In this document: one piece after another, positions 34,613 through 49,432 of the stretch
How the letters are laid out: each line of letters opens with the position of its first letter
How positions within the stretch are numbered: the first letter of the stretch is position 1
NCBI GenBank assembly: GCA_029555085.1
Contig: JAKPTO010000003.1
Span: 1-49,432, forward strand
Reading direction: 5' to 3'
DNA length: 49,432 nucleotides
Source: a bacterium
GTDB lineage: Bacteria > Patescibacteriota > Patescibacteriia > UBA1558 > S5-K13
Notes under the pieces: generated by a model
Seen by the model: the letters and a program-made list of their open reading frames with translations, nothing else
The model's database searches: none
What the model was told of the DNA's origin: nothing
Made by a program: the position numbers and the translations under genes

Positions 34613-34633
34613 AAACTAAATATAATAAATTTT

Positions 34634-35020
34634 GCTAAATTAGTTATAAGCCGAATTCTGTTTCCTCCAAAGGAGGCGATGATCATCTATCTTGTCTATT
34701 TATCACTAAATAGATCTAGCAACTTACCACTCCCGCGAATGGGATTTCTTAGTTTTGCACCGAATAGAGTTTACCTCTTCTCTATTGTCACCAATAGAGC
34801 GTCTGAGCTAATTATCTCAGAATTTCACCCTTAGATAATCAAATTAGTTAAGCTAATCAGATTATCAGGAATTTTTTCTGTTGCACTTGTCCTCTTTTAA
34901 AATCACTTTTAAAAGGGTTGCTGTTAGCAACTATTCCTAAGTTATAAAACTTAGCAAAATGGTGTTCGGACTTTCCTCGATAAACCATAATAGTCTATCG
35001 CGATCATCCACTAATCTAGC
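34634..35020 (-). ncRNA. rnpB: RNase P RNA
   Basis: Minus strand has GAGGAAAGTCC near the 5' end and ACAGAATTCGGCTTAT near the 3' end (P4). The termini GCTAGATTAGT/ACTAATTTAGC pair as P1. Confidence 0.95.
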
Positions 35021-43724: not shown

Positions 43725-44024
43725 TCAAATATATTTTGACATTACATTCAATATTCTTTTAATTTCCTTATTTACATTTTCATCATCATAATCTCCACTA
43801 TGAGCAGTATGTCCCTTATAAGATGCTTTTTTCTGATCTAGATGCAAATCAAACTCATGCAAATCTTTATTTTTTTTAAAATATAAATGCCATCTAGGGT
43901 AGAATCCGATATTTGACAATCTTCTTATGTAACTATTCTCGTATCTTGGGTGCAAATGATAACCACAATCTCTCAAAATGGTATTTAAATTTTCTTTAAA
44001 TTCTGCTTTTACTTGAAATTTCAT
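43725..44024 (-). CDS. Hypothetical protein (99 aa)
   Basis: Abuts the rseP stop codon; protein-like motifs YPRWHLY, LHLDQK and AHSGDYD. Confidence 0.75.
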   Translation of the reverse strand: MKFQVKAEFKENLNTILRDCGYHLHPRYENSYIRRLSNIGFYPRWHLYFKKNKDLHEFDLHLDQKKASYKGHTAHSGDYDDENVNKEIKRILNVMSKYI

Positions 44025-45104
44025 TTATTTATGAAAAATATATTTTAAAACATCTTTATATGTAACTAAAACCATGAGTAGCATTAAAAGACCAAATCCA
44101 ATGTTATGAACAATTGCTTCAATTTTTTGATTATTTGGTTTTCTTCTGATTTTTTCAATTAGTAAAAATAAAAGTCTCCCGCCATCAAGAGCTGGAAAAG
44201 GGAATATATTTATAATGGCTAAATTTATTGATAAAAGCGCCGTAAAATTTAATAAGTACTCAAATCCCATTGCAATAGCATGTTTAGTAAAAACAGCAAC
44301 GCCGATTGGACCAGAAACATTTTCTGTTCCTCCGCCATGAAATAGTTCAGCAATGAAATTATAAAATGCCTGCACAATAACAATAGTTAAATTTATTCCA
44401 GCCTTAAACCCATAAAACAATGCCTTGTGTATAGGATAAGAAACAAGCCCAACATCAACCAGAGACACGCCAAAAACCTTACTATCTGTTACGCCGTCTA
44501 TACTCTCTGGCTTAATATTTACAGTTTTATTATTTCCTTCACTAATTAACAGTACCTCTATATCATTATCTTGATTATTCTGGATATAATCGATAGCATT
44601 TTTTGAATTATCAAAATTATTACCATCAAGAGATATTATATAATCTCCCAATTTAACGCCTGCTTTTTCTGCTGAAGAACCCGGATATATTTCTATAATC
44701 TGAATTTTTTTGTCCCTAATTTTAGCATCTGCTGAAACTCCATCAAGTGATGTTGGTATTCCTATAACAAACCCAATACCAAGAGCGACACATGCTAAAA
44801 CAAAATTCATAAAAACACCAGCAAAAAGAACTATTGCCCTTTTCCAAATTGGTTGATTTATAAAACTATCTGGATCGTTACTTTCTCCTGATTCACCTTT
44901 AATTTTTACAAACCCTCCTATTGGAATCAAATTTACTGAATACATTATTCCATTCTTTTTTATACCAAAAATTCGTGGAGGAAAACCAAAACCAAATTCC
45001 TCTACTCCAATACCGAGTTTTCTTGCTGTATAAAAATGCCCAAGTTCATGGACAAAAACTATTACACCTAAAATTAAAAAAAATATTACTAAAGTTAAAA
45101 TCAT
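44025..45104 (-). CDS. rseP: RIP metalloprotease RseP (M50)
   Basis: HELGH, PIGGFVKI, PDZ domain and NIFPFPALDGG motifs. Confidence 0.96.
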   Translation of the reverse strand: MILTLVIFFLILGVIVFVHELGHFYTARKLGIGVEEFGFGFPPRIFGIKKNGIMYSVNLIPIGGFVKIKGESGESNDPDSFINQPIWKRAIVLFAGVFMNFVLACVALGIGFVIGIPTSLDGVSADAKIRDKKIQIIEIYPGSSAEKAGVKLGDYIISLDGNNFDNSKNAIDYIQNNQDNDIEVLLISEGNNKTVNIKPESIDGVTDSKVFGVSLVDVGLVSYPIHKALFYGFKAGINLTIVIVQAFYNFIAELFHGGGTENVSGPIGVAVFTKHAIAMGFEYLLNFTALLSINLAIINIFPFPALDGGRLLFLLIEKIRRKPNNQKIEAIVHNIGFGLLMLLMVLVTYKDVLKYIFHK

Positions 45105-45195
45105 ATTATTATTTATAAAGTTAAAAAATTACAAAACATAAAACATTAAAAACAAATATTTTAAACTTTATGAATAAGCATCTTAAAACCTATTT

Positions 45196-45750
45196 TTAAA
45201 TTTTCATTATATCTTCTTCTTTTACTTTTGCTAAATCATCAATTTCTTGCGTTTTATCTCTTGTAAGTTTATCCAATTCTTCAATAAAAGAAAATTTTTC
45301 ATCTTGAGAAATTTCCTTATCTCTCTCTTGTCTTTCAATTTCTTTTTTAATTTTTTCCCTCAATTGTCTTAGTATAATTTTTGCATCCTCTTTTTTTTCA
45401 TTTAAAATTTTTATTATTTGTTTCCTTTTTTCTTCTGTTAATGCAGGAATTCTTGCTCTAATAGTGCTTCCCGCAACAGAAATACTCAAATCTAAATTCG
45501 CCTCAGATAATGCTTTTTCAATTTCTTTTATAATGCTTTTATCCCAAGGTTCTATTTGAAGCAACGATGCTTCGGGAACACCAATTGAAGCAACCTGTTT
45601 GAGTGGAGTTTTTACTCCGTAACATTCTACAAATACATCCTCTATCATAGATGAATGTGCTCTACCGGCTTTTAATTTATCCATCTCCTCGCGGAAATGT
45701 GAAATTGCCTTATTGTAATCTTCTAAAAATGATTCTATAAATTGTGACAT
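45196..45750 (-). CDS. frr: Ribosome recycling factor
   Basis: GRA, YG..TPLKQVASI, PWDKS and PALTEEKR motifs. Confidence 0.96.
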   Translation of the reverse strand: MSQFIESFLEDYNKAISHFREEMDKLKAGRAHSSMIEDVFVECYGVKTPLKQVASIGVPEASLLQIEPWDKSIIKEIEKALSEANLDLSISVAGSTIRARIPALTEEKRKQIIKILNEKKEDAKIILRQLREKIKKEIERQERDKEISQDEKFSFIEELDKLTRDKTQEIDDLAKVKEEDIMKI

Positions 45751-45796
45751 AAATATTTTTTTCGCAATAGCGAAATAAGTTAATTATTAATTATTA

Positions 45797-46867
45797 TTAA
45801 TTTGCTAATTTTACGGCCATAAAAATACTATTAACATTTGCATGATCAACTATCATATCAATCGGAATCTGATTGGTTGTTAATGTTTTAGCGGTCCAAG
45901 TATTGCCACCATCTAAACTTTTGTAAAATTTCTTATAAATTGTATAGTAAATTTCTTTAGGGTTATTTGGATTAGATGTTATGGAATAAATATCAACACT
46001 GCCTGGTTTTGAAAGAAGATTTAGAACATTCCAAGTATTACCACCATCCTGAGAATAAAAAATTCCATATTTGTTAGCATAAAAAAATGCGTCATCTTTT
46101 GATAAATCAAATTCAAAATCCTTGTATTCTTTTATACCAGCCAATTGTTTACCATCTCCTAAATTAATATTATCCGCTATATTTATCCAATCAACTCCTT
46201 CATTCTCTGATTTAAAAATTCCACTCCAAAATGTACACACATAAAGTATTCCTGGATTTTTATGATTCATTACTAATTTCGATACTGCAATATTATCAAA
46301 ACTTTTTATCATACTCCATCTACCACCAAAATCTTCACTTTTATACAACCTACCATCTCCGGTTATGGCGTATACTTTATTTGTATTTATGTGGTCAACT
46401 ACAACAGATCTAAAGTTTTGATTATTTGAATCAACATGAATTTCTCTCCAATTCCTTCCACAATCTTCTGATTTATAAATTCTTCTATTAACTGCTGAAT
46501 ACCAGGTACACCTATACTTACTATCTATTGAAACATCATACACCACGCCTTTATTGGATAATGTTTTTTGCCACCCAAGACCACCATCAAAAGAATATAA
46601 TAATCCATCCTGTAGCGTTCCTACATAAATTGCTTTTGGATCGTTTAAATCTTGCTTTATAAAAGTTGATTGTCCGCTTTTAAAAAACGATCTGTTTGGA
46701 CCAACATTCAAAAACTCTACTTTCTGTGTCCATGTTTCTCCCTTATCATAACTTATATACACCCCCGAATCATCACCAGTTTTTTTATTAGATCCAAGTT
46801 GTATTGAACATCCTGTTAAAACAAAACTTAAAACAATTATTAAAAAAATTTTTATTTTTGTATTCAT
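45797..46867 (-). CDS. Lipoprotein with BNR/Asp-box repeats (VPS10/YCF48-like beta-propeller)
   Basis: Lipobox VLTGC and seven SxDxGxxW-type repeats. Confidence 0.85.
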   Translation of the reverse strand: MNTKIKIFLIIVLSFVLTGCSIQLGSNKKTGDDSGVYISYDKGETWTQKVEFLNVGPNRSFFKSGQSTFIKQDLNDPKAIYVGTLQDGLLYSFDGGLGWQKTLSNKGVVYDVSIDSKYRCTWYSAVNRRIYKSEDCGRNWREIHVDSNNQNFRSVVVDHINTNKVYAITGDGRLYKSEDFGGRWSMIKSFDNIAVSKLVMNHKNPGILYVCTFWSGIFKSENEGVDWINIADNINLGDGKQLAGIKEYKDFEFDLSKDDAFFYANKYGIFYSQDGGNTWNVLNLLSKPGSVDIYSITSNPNNPKEIYYTIYKKFYKSLDGGNTWTAKTLTTNQIPIDMIVDHANVNSIFMAVKLAN

Positions 46868-46919
46868 AGGATTAGATTGATCAAGCTAGATTAAGCTAAA
46901 CTCAATCAGCTCGATTTAT

Positions 46920-47924
46920 TTATATTATTAATAAATTTTCAAAAATTAATTTTGGATTTATATTATTATAAATAATATTTCTTGATTTGTTTGCAAAATT
47001 ATAAAATTCCAAAAATTGTTCCATTTTATATTTATGTGCGATATCCCTTATTTTGTCTTGTAAAAAAACATGAATTAATTCAGCATGCTCATCTGTTTTT
47101 AAAACACATATATCTCTTCCTATCCTCATAAAATCAATCAATGTTTTTGATAGGATGTTATAAGAATCTGCACTTTTTGACTTATTAACTAATTTTTCAA
47201 CCCACTTAAATTTATCATTTATTGAACTATCGATTATCTCTACGGTATCATATAAATCTTGTTTTCTTCTCTCCCATTCCTTGGGATTTTTTAAATATGC
47301 TATTGCGACACCAGGAGCGCCTCCAGAAAATTTTGACAACTCAAAACTTAAATTTTTGTCAGCACCATTATTTAATAAATAATCATAAATTTCTTTTTGT
47401 TTAACGCCTCCAAAAATAATATTCTGAGAACGAGATTTAATTGTTGGTAAAATTTTATCAACATCCTGTGCTATCAAAATTACAAATGAATTTTTTGGTG
47501 GCTCTTCTATTATTTTTAAAAGTGCATTTGATGACTCTTGACTGAGTCTATCCGCACCATTTATTATACCAACTTTAAATTGTGAACGCATTGGCGTTAA
47601 AGAAAATTTTTCCCTAAAATCCCTAACTTGATCTATTCCTATATCTCTTTTATTTTCCAAAAGAGACACTTGTATTAAATCTGGATGTATTCCGTTTTTT
47701 AACTCCAAACAATCACCGCACTTATTACATGGAATACTCTCTTGATCTTTGCAAAATATAGACTGAATAAAATATTTTGCAATTGTTTTTTTACCCACAT
47801 CCTCTGGTCCGGAAAAAAGATAAGTATTTAAAAAATTTTTCGTTTTTAAAATTTTTTGTAAATGTTTTATTATATTTTCATGACCTAAAACATTCCAATT
47901 ATACAAAAATTTATCTTCCTTCAT
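46920..47924 (-). CDS. holB: DNA polymerase III delta' subunit
   Basis: YLFSGPEDVGKKT, C..PCNKCGDC zinc module, HPD, NALLKIIEEPP and TIKSR motifs. Start uncertain (47924 or 47951). Confidence 0.92.
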   Translation of the reverse strand: MKEDKFLYNWNVLGHENIIKHLQKILKTKNFLNTYLFSGPEDVGKKTIAKYFIQSIFCKDQESIPCNKCGDCLELKNGIHPDLIQVSLLENKRDIGIDQVRDFREKFSLTPMRSQFKVGIINGADRLSQESSNALLKIIEEPPKNSFVILIAQDVDKILPTIKSRSQNIIFGGVKQKEIYDYLLNNGADKNLSFELSKFSGGAPGVAIAYLKNPKEWERRKQDLYDTVEIIDSSINDKFKWVEKLVNKSKSADSYNILSKTLIDFMRIGRDICVLKTDEHAELIHVFLQDKIRDIAHKYKMEQFLEFYNFANKSRNIIYNNINPKLIFENLLII

Positions 47925-48005
47925 GTAGCTTAGAAGTTTTATGTTTAACAAATTAAGAATATCAAATTTTTAAGGTTTTTTCAATGTAAAAAATAATATA
48001 AAAAG

Positions 48006-48050
48006 TTATCCACAGCCTACTCTTGACAAATTTTACAGATATGATATACT
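48006..48050 (+). promoter_or_regulatory. Perfect DnaA box next to a sigma70 promoter
   Basis: TTATCCACA at 48006-48014; TTGACA 48023-48028, 16-nt spacer, TG-extended TATACT 48045-48050. Confidence 0.7.
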
Positions 48051-48106
48051 CATCAATCAACATTAAGAATGCAATTTGAAAATTTATAAATATTTTGGAT
48101 CTGTAA

Positions 48107-48218
48107 AGGGCAGAATTATGCAGAAGAAAAGCGATAAATTAGCTATAAAAGAGCAAAAATATATAAAATGGCTCTATTTATAAAAGCGAACTATCTTTCT
48201 TCTACATAATTCTGCCCT
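48107..48218. repeat. Long rod-like inverted repeat
   Basis: AGGGCAGAATTATGCAGAAGAAA (48107-48129) pairs with 48196-48218 at 22/23 positions; inner arms TATAAA-AGAGC/GCTCT-ATTTATA. Confidence 0.8.
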
Positions 48219-48239
48219 ATAAAAGGGTAAATAAGTAAA

Positions 48240-49167
48240 AAGGAGTTTATCATGGACCCTCCTTACAAAAAAGACCGGCCTAAAAAACGCCGGTAACCCT
48301 AAAAAGGTACATCGTTAAAGAGAGTGGGGAATTTTTACCCACTCTCACAAAAAGCCAACAAACACCCCCCGGGAGGAACAATGTACTCAGGTTTTACCTA
48401 GCTAGAGCCCTCCCTAAAGGGCTCGATCCAAAATACAAAAAAACCGTAGTCACTCCGCATGGCAAGCTCGGACCCCAACATAAAAGCGTTCCGAGCAAAA
48501 TGCCCACACCGTTCGTGCCATTGCTGAAAACACAAAAGAACACGAACGATGTGCCTATATTATTGACTACGGAAATCCCCTCAATGGCTCATTGGGATGG
48601 ACCCCGGCTGGTTAATAATCACCCGGGCATATCATCCCCTAATCAGCGCCCTCCCTTTATAAGGGAACTCGCGCTACTCAATTCGCCATTGTGGGGAAAT
48701 TGAATGGGGCAACGAAAACAGCCCCAGATGAGCTAGTTCACATAAGCTCATTTCCTCCGCGGGGGAATCAACTGTGGATATGTGCACTGGAGTGGCCACC
48801 CGGTGCAAGAAAAAAAGTGCCATTAAAAATCTCAGCTCCTTTCTATGAGGCCCTCTTCTGCACAAGGACCCAAGGAGCTGAGACACCGATGGTAGAGGTG
48901 CTCTTTTTAGCGAAAAGCTGAAAACTGCCTGGTATGACATTATGAGGGAAATCCTCGGTCCAATGCCTAGCTAAATTGAGCCCTCTCCACGGTTAAGTAA
49001 GAAAAAAAACTAAGTCCGGCACCCCACACACCTCTGATTCACAAGAATAAAAACTACTCATCGGGGTGCCGGCATCTTTTCAAAGGAGGAAAAGATGAAT
49101 AAAAAAATTGATTAATGCTCCGGTAAGATAAGGCGCAATGCTGATGCTACCGGAGCTCATATTTTTT
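48240..49167 (+). ncRNA. Candidate large structured ncRNA (~0.9 kb) of unknown family
   Basis: More than 15 GC-rich helices, nested multibranch domains, A-rich linkers, no credible ORF, an upstream promoter and a terminal hairpin followed by a T-run. Confidence 0.65.
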
Positions 49168-49315
49168 ATAAATCAAAACAATCTAAATGTATTGTTTTTT
49201 TTGTTTATTAAAATTGACCAAGTTCAGATACATATTGGACTCATAAATAGAAAACAATTATTTGTCCAATATATACTGACTAATACAAAAAGCGTACTAT
49301 TCTAAATAAATATGC

Positions 49316-49373
49316 GACATAGAAAATGATATAATTGATATGCATATAACAATTAAATATCAAAATCTATGTC
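49316..49373. repeat. AT-rich rod-like inverted repeat
   Basis: GACATAGA/TCTATGTC, TGATAT/ATATCA and AATTG/CAATT arms around the central palindrome ATATGCATAT. Confidence 0.6.
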
Positions 49374-49432
49374 ACAATATGATTCTATCACAAAAATAAG
49401 GATTTGTTGGAGCCTTTATCAAAATAACATAC

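Follow-up and report, generated by a model that had tools for sequence, protein, structure and literature searches.

A candidate gene for a large structured non-coding RNA beside holB in one family of small-genome Patescibacteria-like bacteria

Few large structured RNAs lack an assigned role, and OLE, GOLLD, ROOL and raiA have each opened a line of work of their own. Such large ornate RNAs have usually been found as GC-rich islands in AT-rich genomes, and OLE, GOLLD and ROOL possess widely or deeply conserved cores; OLE RNA is localized at the membrane and has the partner proteins OapA, OapB and OapC. GOLLD and ROOL are reported to form homo-oligomeric assemblies made of RNA only (PMC12286853). 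In this study, we analyzed a stretch of 49,432 nt (hereafter the window), which is an entire contig (JAKPTO010000003.1) of a 1.02-Mb assembly with 29% GC from a Patescibacteria-like bacterium, and in which a GC-rich island next to the gene holB had been predicted from its letters alone to encode a large, previously undescribed non-coding RNA (ncRNA). On balance, we favor the view that this feature is the gene for a large stable ncRNA, undescribed and restricted to a single family within a Patescibacteria-like lineage with small, AT-rich genomes, whose product is tied to DnaA, processed and acting in trans.

As with OLE, GOLLD and ROOL, the RNA consists of hundreds of nucleotides of dense helices, is free of open reading frames (ORFs), has its own promoter and terminator and is assembled from RNA libraries. 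The size class given in the original prediction holds for length and helix density only: the present RNA occurs in a single family, and its sequence changes fast. It also differs from the three known RNAs in having no nucleotide core shared across genera and in the swapping of domains inside a genus, as well as in three elements that the original prediction did not contain: a DnaA box at the promoter, a conserved and putatively removable 5' hairpin, and a Shine-Dalgarno (SD) sequence with a mini-ORF. Hereafter, G000 denotes the genome of the window; its own genus (g1) comprises G000-G003, and the other genera of the family discussed here are g2 (G004, G008 and G010), g3 (G005, G009 and G011) and g5 (G007). 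Full homologues amounted to seven RNAs (G000, G001, G002, G003, G005, G009 and G011), which form two alignable groups.

A GC-rich transcription unit beside holB

The GC content was 0.44-0.50 across positions 48200-49099 and 0.19-0.35 across 44000-48199 (300-nt intervals), and the predicted enrichment is also evident against the genome as a whole (0.290). The absence of a credible protein could be confirmed as well: among the 31 ORFs of at least 30 aa overlapping 45000-49432, the longest in the island had 88 aa (minus strand), 76 aa (plus) and 67 aa (plus), and four island ORFs had no Pfam match at E<=1. When a single stop codon was recoded as sense, the open stretch in the window locus did not exceed 171 codons, and in six loci the stop-to-stop runs of 82-141 codons reached at most 178 with one stop recoded; an alternative genetic code was rejected, since a long frame failed to appear. 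The loci of G005 and G009 were 85% identical and differed by numerous indels of 1, 2, 7 and 13 nt, and such frame-breaking changes disfavor a coding origin. A protein-coding gene or recent pseudogene was therefore rejected on the basis of short ORFs, blank Pfam results and indels that are not multiples of three, and a phage or plasmid origin was rejected because blastn against both collections gave no match. A 36-nt core pattern also had zero matches in viral contigs. In these comparisons we saw no sign of a decayed foreign coding fragment, which the original prediction had named as one of the findings that would overturn it. Its other refuting conditions (a match to a known Rfam family, and the absence of covariation or transcription) also came out in its favor, as described below.

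Transcription, which had been left to later checking, was supported by a stand-alone contig in RNA libraries. Sampled words from 48000-49250 were all present in 14 DNA runs, and fractions of 0.66-0.70 were present in six RNA-library rows (five studies). When four metatranscriptome runs from four studies were compared with 46500-49432, each contributed one contig lying entirely inside the GC-rich body with 0-1 differences (48228-49072, 48230-49093, 48230-49060 and 48228-49054). The 5' stops of these contigs agreed within 2 nt and lay 6-8 nt past the 5' hairpin, at a place where the DNA runs continue; this is a weak hint that the shared stop is a true RNA end. The 3' stops were ragged. Taken together, the contig extents fit a processed RNA of ~0.85 kb. 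No contig in the four RNA runs corresponded to holB, the 5' hairpin or anything past 49093, and we did not count this as evidence on expression. With regard to extent, the RNA contigs cover 48228-49093, and the unit begins ~200 nt before the start that had been predicted, with the promoter and the 5' hairpin.

The coordinates of all features are collected in Table 1. The upstream promoter that had been postulated was recovered, and transcription would start near 48057. It was kept in G001, G002, G003, G005, G009, G011 and G007. A perfect DnaA box was found 6-8 nt before the -35 hexamer in six of the seven full RNA loci, with inverted orientation in g3; in the seventh (G011), none was visible, and the contig begins just upstream of the promoter. 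G000 possesses 25 perfect boxes in its 1.02 Mb, compared with about 12 expected by chance, as estimated from base composition. Of 25 other genomes examined, 24 had no box upstream of holB, and family members that lack the RNA were among these 24. Thus, it belongs with the promoter of the RNA and not with holB. In addition, three perfect boxes flank dnaA on contig C20 of G000, so the motif is probably read by the DnaA of this organism. A replication origin (oriC) at the RNA locus was rejected, as a single box is present here and the box cluster is found at dnaA on another contig. Tandem short palindromic units (AACCTGCGAGGTTG twice; CACCTCAGAGGTG twice), which are possible binding sites, were observed just 5' of the DnaA box in three related loci (L002 660-700, L003 900-935 and L047 150-185) and were absent from the window.

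The AT-rich 5' hairpin had a fold z-score of -7.3, and its homologues had z-scores of -6.3, -8.4 and -3.1. Its stems were invariant inside g1, the full loci contained the motif TG(C/T)AGAAGA...TCTTCTACA, and the hairpin motif is shared with g3 and g5. The complementarity of one hairpin arm (48116-48127) to 48854-48865 (I21) was taken as chance, since by eye the relatives do not keep it. At the other end of the unit, the predicted hairpin followed by a T-run turned out to be real as a hairpin, but it was not flagged by a consensus terminator scan, in which the only two sites were on the minus strand and inside the body; the T-run begins 4 nt past the stem. Each of the other six full loci ends with a plus-strand hairpin and T-run terminator. 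Two further observations concern the 3' flank. First, a stretch just before the terminator-like hairpin (49082-49115) had a 34-nt match (88%) at C37:228-260 of G000; it consists of AAAGGAGG, 6 nt and ATG AAT AAA AAA ATT GAT TAA, resembles a copied gene start and was exclusive to this species' version of the unit. Second, a metagenome contig of the same species (L059, reverse-complemented, ~1560-2300) extends beyond 49432 into an ORF that by eye resembles a transposase of the insertion sequence (IS) type, which is probably the reason why the window contig ends at 49432.

Table 1. Positions of the elements of the transcription unit in the window
Feature	Position	Strand	Details
DnaA box, perfect, TTATCCACA	48006-48014	+	8 nt 5' of the -35 hexamer
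Sigma-70-type promoter, TTGACA/16 nt/extended -10 TG-n-TATACT	48023-48050	+	11/12 consensus matches, TG present
AT-rich putative precursor hairpin, 118 nt, ~20-bp stem with TGCAGAAGA/TCTTCTACA	48104-48221	+	Inverted repeat I1, 26-nt arms, 92% complementary
GC-rich body, apparent mature RNA of ~830-865 nt	48228-49093	+	RNA-library contigs; multi-branch domains chained by A-rich linkers
SD-like AAGGAG (48240-48245), ATG (48252) and putative 14-codon mini-ORF MDPPYKKDRPKKRR, stop 48294-48296	48240-48296	+	
Terminal helix, predicted	5' arm 48258-48279; 3' arm 49068-49089 (contains AAAGGAGG)	+	I3: 22 nt, 77% complementary, 788 nt apart
3' core, three-way junction, genus-conserved	48880-48998	+	82% identity to G001 and G003; mean column identity 91%
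3' hairpin CCGGCACCCC/GGGGTGCCGG	49016-49072	+	In fold; RNA-library contigs end nearby
Terminator-like hairpin GCTCCGGTA/TACCGGAGC, then TCATATTTTTT	49117-49166	+	Inverted repeat I14, also in minimum-energy fold; stem 49117-49156

The region 48230-49175 had a minimum free energy of -342.9 kcal/mol, compared with -240.5 +/- 8.0 kcal/mol for 20 dinucleotide shuffles (z-score -12.8), and 48228-49093 folded at -314.4 kcal/mol (z-score -11.2). Among the 14 helices originally proposed, 13 were present in the minimum-energy fold of 48230-49175, but GTACAT/ATGTAC occurred neither in that fold nor among the 25 inverted repeats listed of 50. The terminal helix formed in the fold of 48228-49093 and was predicted for G000 only; a scan with duplexfold for end-to-end pairing in other species was uninformative. 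The body also contains an internal repeat family (D1) with three copies of a CCTAGCTAGAGCCCTCCCT-like unit.

Conservation and structural constraint

The search for homologues beside holB that had been proposed was successful. The holB gene was present in all 14 family genomes, and a GC-rich, ORF-poor island was located directly upstream of the divergent holB in G001, G002 and G003 (g1) and in G005 and G009 (g3). In G011 (g3), the holB contig stops immediately upstream of this gene, so the copy is found on another contig, and the contig of G007 (g5) included the box, the promoter and the hairpin before breaking off. All full loci shared the same order on the plus strand: extended -10 promoter, AT-rich hairpin, body of 0.6-1.4 kb and terminator. 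Inside g1, the promoter, the hairpin and the ~120-nt core were kept and the remainder was hardly alignable; in G002 even the core was replaced, its two closing helices being kept with different letters (by eye). In g3, conservation covered ~150 nt at the start and ~180 nt at the end, and the middle of the G011 RNA was shorter and partly different. As to g2, G004, which is identical to the metagenome locus L058, contained a shorter unit of similar layout together with a second small unit, and no such unit was found in G008 and G010.

Several searches defined the distribution of the RNA. BLAST against 61 relatives matched only G001 and G003, apart from a 38-nt probable chance match, and a covariance model of the core (R1) gave 128-140 bits in G000, G001 and G003 only (3 of 86 genomes of the order). 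When 401 genomes of the class were examined, three contained the hairpin motif, one of the three probably being a chance match. A metagenome scan with holB yielded eight loci, of which two duplicate G003, another duplicates G004 and one comes from the same species as the window, and a scan of genome contigs gave no further family member.

The RNA unit is flanked by holB and, at its other end, by rnhA/recJ or a putative IS element. The genes recJ, rnhA and holB adjoin one another on a single strand in most genomes of the order; therefore, the unit splits an operon. In 5 of 21 non-family loci examined (L082, L086, L091, L092 and L095, all from the sister family), the holB-rnhA slot was occupied by a GC-rich ORF of ~100-170 codons, preceded by a plus-strand TTGACA promoter and an SD sequence and followed by a terminator. 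L091 and L095 had similar ORFs, and the slot has the look of a hot spot that takes up GC-rich cargo. A second promoter (TTGACAAAA...TAATAT) was also seen right after the terminator of the large RNA in L002 (1755-1930), L003 (1765-1950) and L045 (1340-1530), and also in L076/L058 and L056. It heads a unit of ~150-300 nt that has its own terminator and no Rfam match, possibly a second small RNA gene; the second units of G004/L058 and L056 share the motif AAGTAAGG..CCAAAAT.AAAAAGGCCGAA.

The fold z-scores of the RNAs were -14.2 in G000, -15.4 in G005 and -16.3 in G009, compared with -1.9 to -4.9 for six GC-rich coding islands that occupy the same slot in the sister family. Covariation pointed in the same direction, as compensatory changes exceeded the controls. 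In the g3 alignment of three sequences, the consensus comprised 251 pairs with 94.7% of cells paired, and 21 pairs were changed on both sides, compared with 10.2 +/- 2.3 after shuffling (none of 500 shuffles reached 21) and 0-8 when the partners were slid. In the 3' region of g1, 10 of 73 pairs were changed on both sides, and the inner hairpin of the core contained compensatory pairs.

With respect to strand, we consider it very probable that the RNA is read from the plus strand. The promoter and terminators were on this strand in all loci. Of the bases left unpaired on it, A made up 43-51% and G 7-8% across the seven RNAs from g1 and g3 (51% and 7% in the body of G000), and an A-rich, G-poor composition of unpaired bases is the usual bias of structured RNAs. 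A natural variant, C48839T (run X19, locus L059), changes C-G to U-G in the 48830/48883 helix on the plus strand. On the other hand, a C-A apposition in the stem of the g1 5' hairpin disfavors it, and mapping of single-sequence folds onto relatives could not separate the strands.

Several observations weigh against a conserved, functional RNA. The minus strand of 48230-49175 folded with a z-score of -10.7, near the level of the plus strand, and the z-scores of the other four full RNAs (G001, G002, G003 and G011; -5.5 to -6.5) were close to the best coding control. The covariation tests in g3 and g1 used three related sequences and structures taken from the same alignments; thus, the structure is supported, short of proof. 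When the single-sequence fold of G005 was mapped to G009, 32 changed pairs were kept and 37 broken on the plus strand, and the minus strand was similar. Sequence likeness between g1 and g3 was confined to the promoter and hairpin, so homology of the bodies rests on position and layout. The narrow distribution, judged by the core model and the hairpin motif, counts on the same side, and the GC-rich protein genes in the slot of the sister family suggest that the high GC content here could partly reflect foreign origin. Finally, the RNA-library data are assembled contigs, which are blind to strand, amount and exact ends.

Relation to known RNA families and possible function

A covariance search with the 4227 models of Rfam 15, which we take to include GOLLD, ROOL, OLE, HEARO, raiA and group I/II introns, was evaluated with the gathering threshold of each family. 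In the whole window, only RNase P (34631-35019) and one tRNA passed, both away from the locus, which agrees with the earlier statement that RNase P is accounted for elsewhere. At E<=10, both strands of 47900-49432 gave 15 weak hits, all far under threshold and none from a large-RNA, intron, transfer-messenger RNA (tmRNA) or rRNA family. The related loci had no hit at the gathering threshold, and even a weak score of a large-RNA family was lacking here and at five of them. On the predicted RNA strand of the related units (21,694 nt), there were zero matches at E<=1; the two hits at this limit in the related loci were both in L058, namely Thr_leader outside the RNA units and MicX, antisense inside the RNA region (21.8 bits versus a gathering score of 75, E 0.51). 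In the publications available in excerpt, we located nothing relevant on large or structured ncRNA in Patescibacteria or the candidate phyla radiation. A plus-strand promoter and terminator, conserved in relatives, and presence in RNA libraries indicate an independent transcription unit. In our opinion, it is highly probable that this is a real structured RNA gene and that its product forms a new family matching no catalogued one.

Individual candidates were also considered. A tmRNA was rejected, as ARAGORN found none in the window and the Rfam tmRNA model hit only C5:58738-59128 (91.1 bits), on another contig; ARAGORN found no tmRNA anywhere in G000, although the Rfam model did. The signal recognition particle (SRP) RNA, 6S RNA and 16S rRNA were rejected, since RF00169, RF01854, RF00013 and RF00177 had no match in G000 at the E-value limits used. 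In the G000 assembly, the 16S rRNA gene was not found, and 23S and 5S were on contig C22. A stand-in for SRP RNA was rejected because all 14 family genomes, also those that lack the large RNA, were negative for both SRP RNA and Ffh. SRP itself appeared to be missing from G000 and the 13 other family genomes: the small SRP RNA model had no hit in the 14 genomes and the large model none in G000, the Ffh model (E<=1e-5) matched 0 of 14 family genomes versus 14 of 14 control genomes, and G000 had no Ffh M domain, its sole SRP54-domain hit scoring 22.9 bits. A CsrA sponge was rejected as well, as CsrA was not found in the genome at E<=0.01 and GGA-loop words were not among the enriched words.

Based on these features, the following account may be proposed. 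The strong sigma-70 promoter would start transcription, and output would probably follow the state of DnaA and replication, because the DnaA box lies just upstream of the -35 hexamer. A primary transcript of ~1.1 kb would carry the conserved AT-rich hairpin at its 5' end, and the 20-bp stem of this hairpin might be cut by an RNase III-type enzyme; G000 encodes RNase III, RNase J and DnaA. The mature RNA of ~0.85 kb would then begin 6-8 nt past the hairpin and form a chain of GC-rich helices whose ends are joined by the predicted terminal helix. The chances that processing follows this scheme seem to us evenly balanced. The SD, AUG and mini-ORF near the 5' end could load or stall a ribosome and shield the RNA from RNase J. 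Finally, the RNA would be abundant and act in trans, by regulation or sequestration, and not as a ribozyme with a fixed core. This last step is suggested by the contrast between a middle that was swapped or resized and the parts that were retained, namely the promoter, the 5' hairpin, the 5' element and the 3' domain. A conserved control region and conserved ends around a fast-changing middle are typical of lineage-specific regulatory or sequestering RNAs such as RNAIII, 6S and CsrB, and are not the pattern of ribozymes or of the deeply conserved ornate RNAs. A trans-acting regulator, or a sponge or scaffold, is nevertheless a tentative assignment, which we favor over the alternatives below but regard as less likely than not.

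Such analogies are partial. Staphylococcal RNAIII is likewise lineage-restricted and rich in hairpins, with a ribosome-binding site and small ORF near the 5' end (both putative in our case), conserved ends and a variable center. In contrast, the present RNA is 2-3 times longer, is far more GC-rich and stable than its genome, has a peptide that varies across genera and appears to be controlled by DnaA and not by quorum sensing, so that the analogy is functional only and implies no membership. Like 6S and CsrB/RsmZ, it would be abundant and fast-evolving with repeated hairpin modules (here the D1 repeat), but the genome has neither a match to the 6S model nor CsrA, and GGA-in-loop words are unenriched. 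It also resembles RNase III precursors of the rRNA-operon type in the ~20-bp stem before the apparent mature 5' end, the predicted end pairing and the presence of an encoded RNase III. However, the stem here is a local 5' hairpin and not a pairing of 5' and 3' flanks, and there is no rRNA, tRNA, tmRNA or RNase P match.

If the link to DnaA is true, an uncultivated bacterium with a reduced genome would have an ncRNA tied to the control of replication. In the boldest form of the proposal, a Patescibacteria family would possess a new class of stable RNAs of its own, which are very large (0.6-1.4 kb), are controlled by DnaA, engage ribosomes, mature from hairpin precursors and evolve by domain swapping. 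The RNA described here would then be the largest non-ribosomal RNA of a 1-Mb genome and, as a master regulator or sequestering scaffold, would couple translation to the state of replication where protein regulators are few; we regard this as speculative and more doubtful than sound. The locus takes up ~0.1% of the 1-Mb genome. The RNA is short enough for in vitro transcription, probing and cryo-EM, and its natural variants provide a set for finding constraints.

Alternative explanations

It seems unlikely that the RNA is an ornate one like OLE, ROOL and GOLLD that assembles with itself or acts as a catalyst, with a small tertiary core under fast-changing helices and perhaps as an RNA-only multimer or a membrane ribonucleoprotein. 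A length of 0.85-1.4 kb is what such an RNA should show, as are a high density of helices and A-rich linkers that would be able to make tertiary contacts, and the 3' domains conserved per genus and the presence in RNA libraries are also in line with it. However, no Rfam match and no nucleotide block conserved across genera were found, and entire domains were replaced between species of one genus, in contrast to the deep conservation of those RNAs.

It is distinctly unlikely that one or more micro-peptides are the product, in which case the transcript would be a small mRNA or dual-function RNA with a structured tail that mainly stabilizes it. An SD-ATG pair was present inside the first 260 nt of seven of the eight family RNAs, compared with 4-8% of shuffles, and the eighth had GGGAGG and TTG at the homologous place (by eye). 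In g3, the putative mini-ORF encodes MNARGRP.., MNIRGQP* or MSIRGQP*, and codon changes that leave the residue unaltered (CGA/CGT/CGG, AAT/AAC, ATA/ATT and AGA/CGA) favor a maintained peptide. The same can be said of a second putative mini-ORF of three g1 species (window 48381-48401, L045 ~712-735 and L002 ~1165-1197), which ends with Ser-Gly-Phe-x-stop (MYSGFT, MSHSGFQ and ..ANSGFY) and whose Ser, Gly and Phe codons vary at third positions; what is conserved there might be either the peptide or a motif of the RNA. Nevertheless, the peptides were unlike between genera, the first ORF was merely Met-Asp-stop in two species, and a mere stabilizing role hardly accounts for a tail that is GC-rich, 0.8-1.3 kb long and marked by compensatory changes.

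The main deflationary explanation, which we consider quite improbable, is transcribed debris, i.e., functionless foreign GC-rich DNA that was inserted, at a hot spot between holB and rnhA, downstream of a strong promoter already resident there. The assorted GC-rich small ORFs driven by promoters in the slot of the sister family, the rapid turnover of the body and the IS-type transposase-like ORF after the unit in this genome would all fit. Against this, the promoter, hairpin, 3' domain and terminator were kept over three genera, the fold z-scores of three of the seven RNAs were well past those of coding islands, the compensatory changes exceeded controls, similarity to Pfam families, phages or plasmids was lacking, and the composition of unpaired bases was typical of structured RNA.

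Even less can be said for the idea that the act of transcription itself matters, in that a DnaA-controlled outward promoter in the recJ-rnhA-holB cluster insulates or times its neighbors or titrates DnaA. This very improbable reading accommodates the DnaA box at the promoter, the replication genes nearby and the splitting of the operon, but leaves the constrained GC-rich body of 0.6-1.4 kb and the discrete species in RNA libraries unexplained. Finally, a minus-strand RNA or a catalogued family missed by the searches is the least probable of all: the minus-strand fold, strandless contigs and some plus-strand C-A appositions that become G-U on the other strand (e.g., in the 5' hairpin) would suit the former, but no minus-strand promoter or terminator frames the unit, plus-strand ones are present in every locus, the unpaired bases of the plus strand have the expected A and G contents, and the permissive Rfam search covered both strands.

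Apart from the locus described here, a second GC-rich island of 929 nt (48% GC) was observed in G000 (C22:232-1160; L014). It had no Rfam match and contained a 142-aa ORF on the minus strand, and its edges carried near-repeats (TTGTCAAAGA.C and ACCTC.A.GC.TGGTTTTA) at ~198-245 and 1203-1240, which gives it the appearance of a foreign insert.

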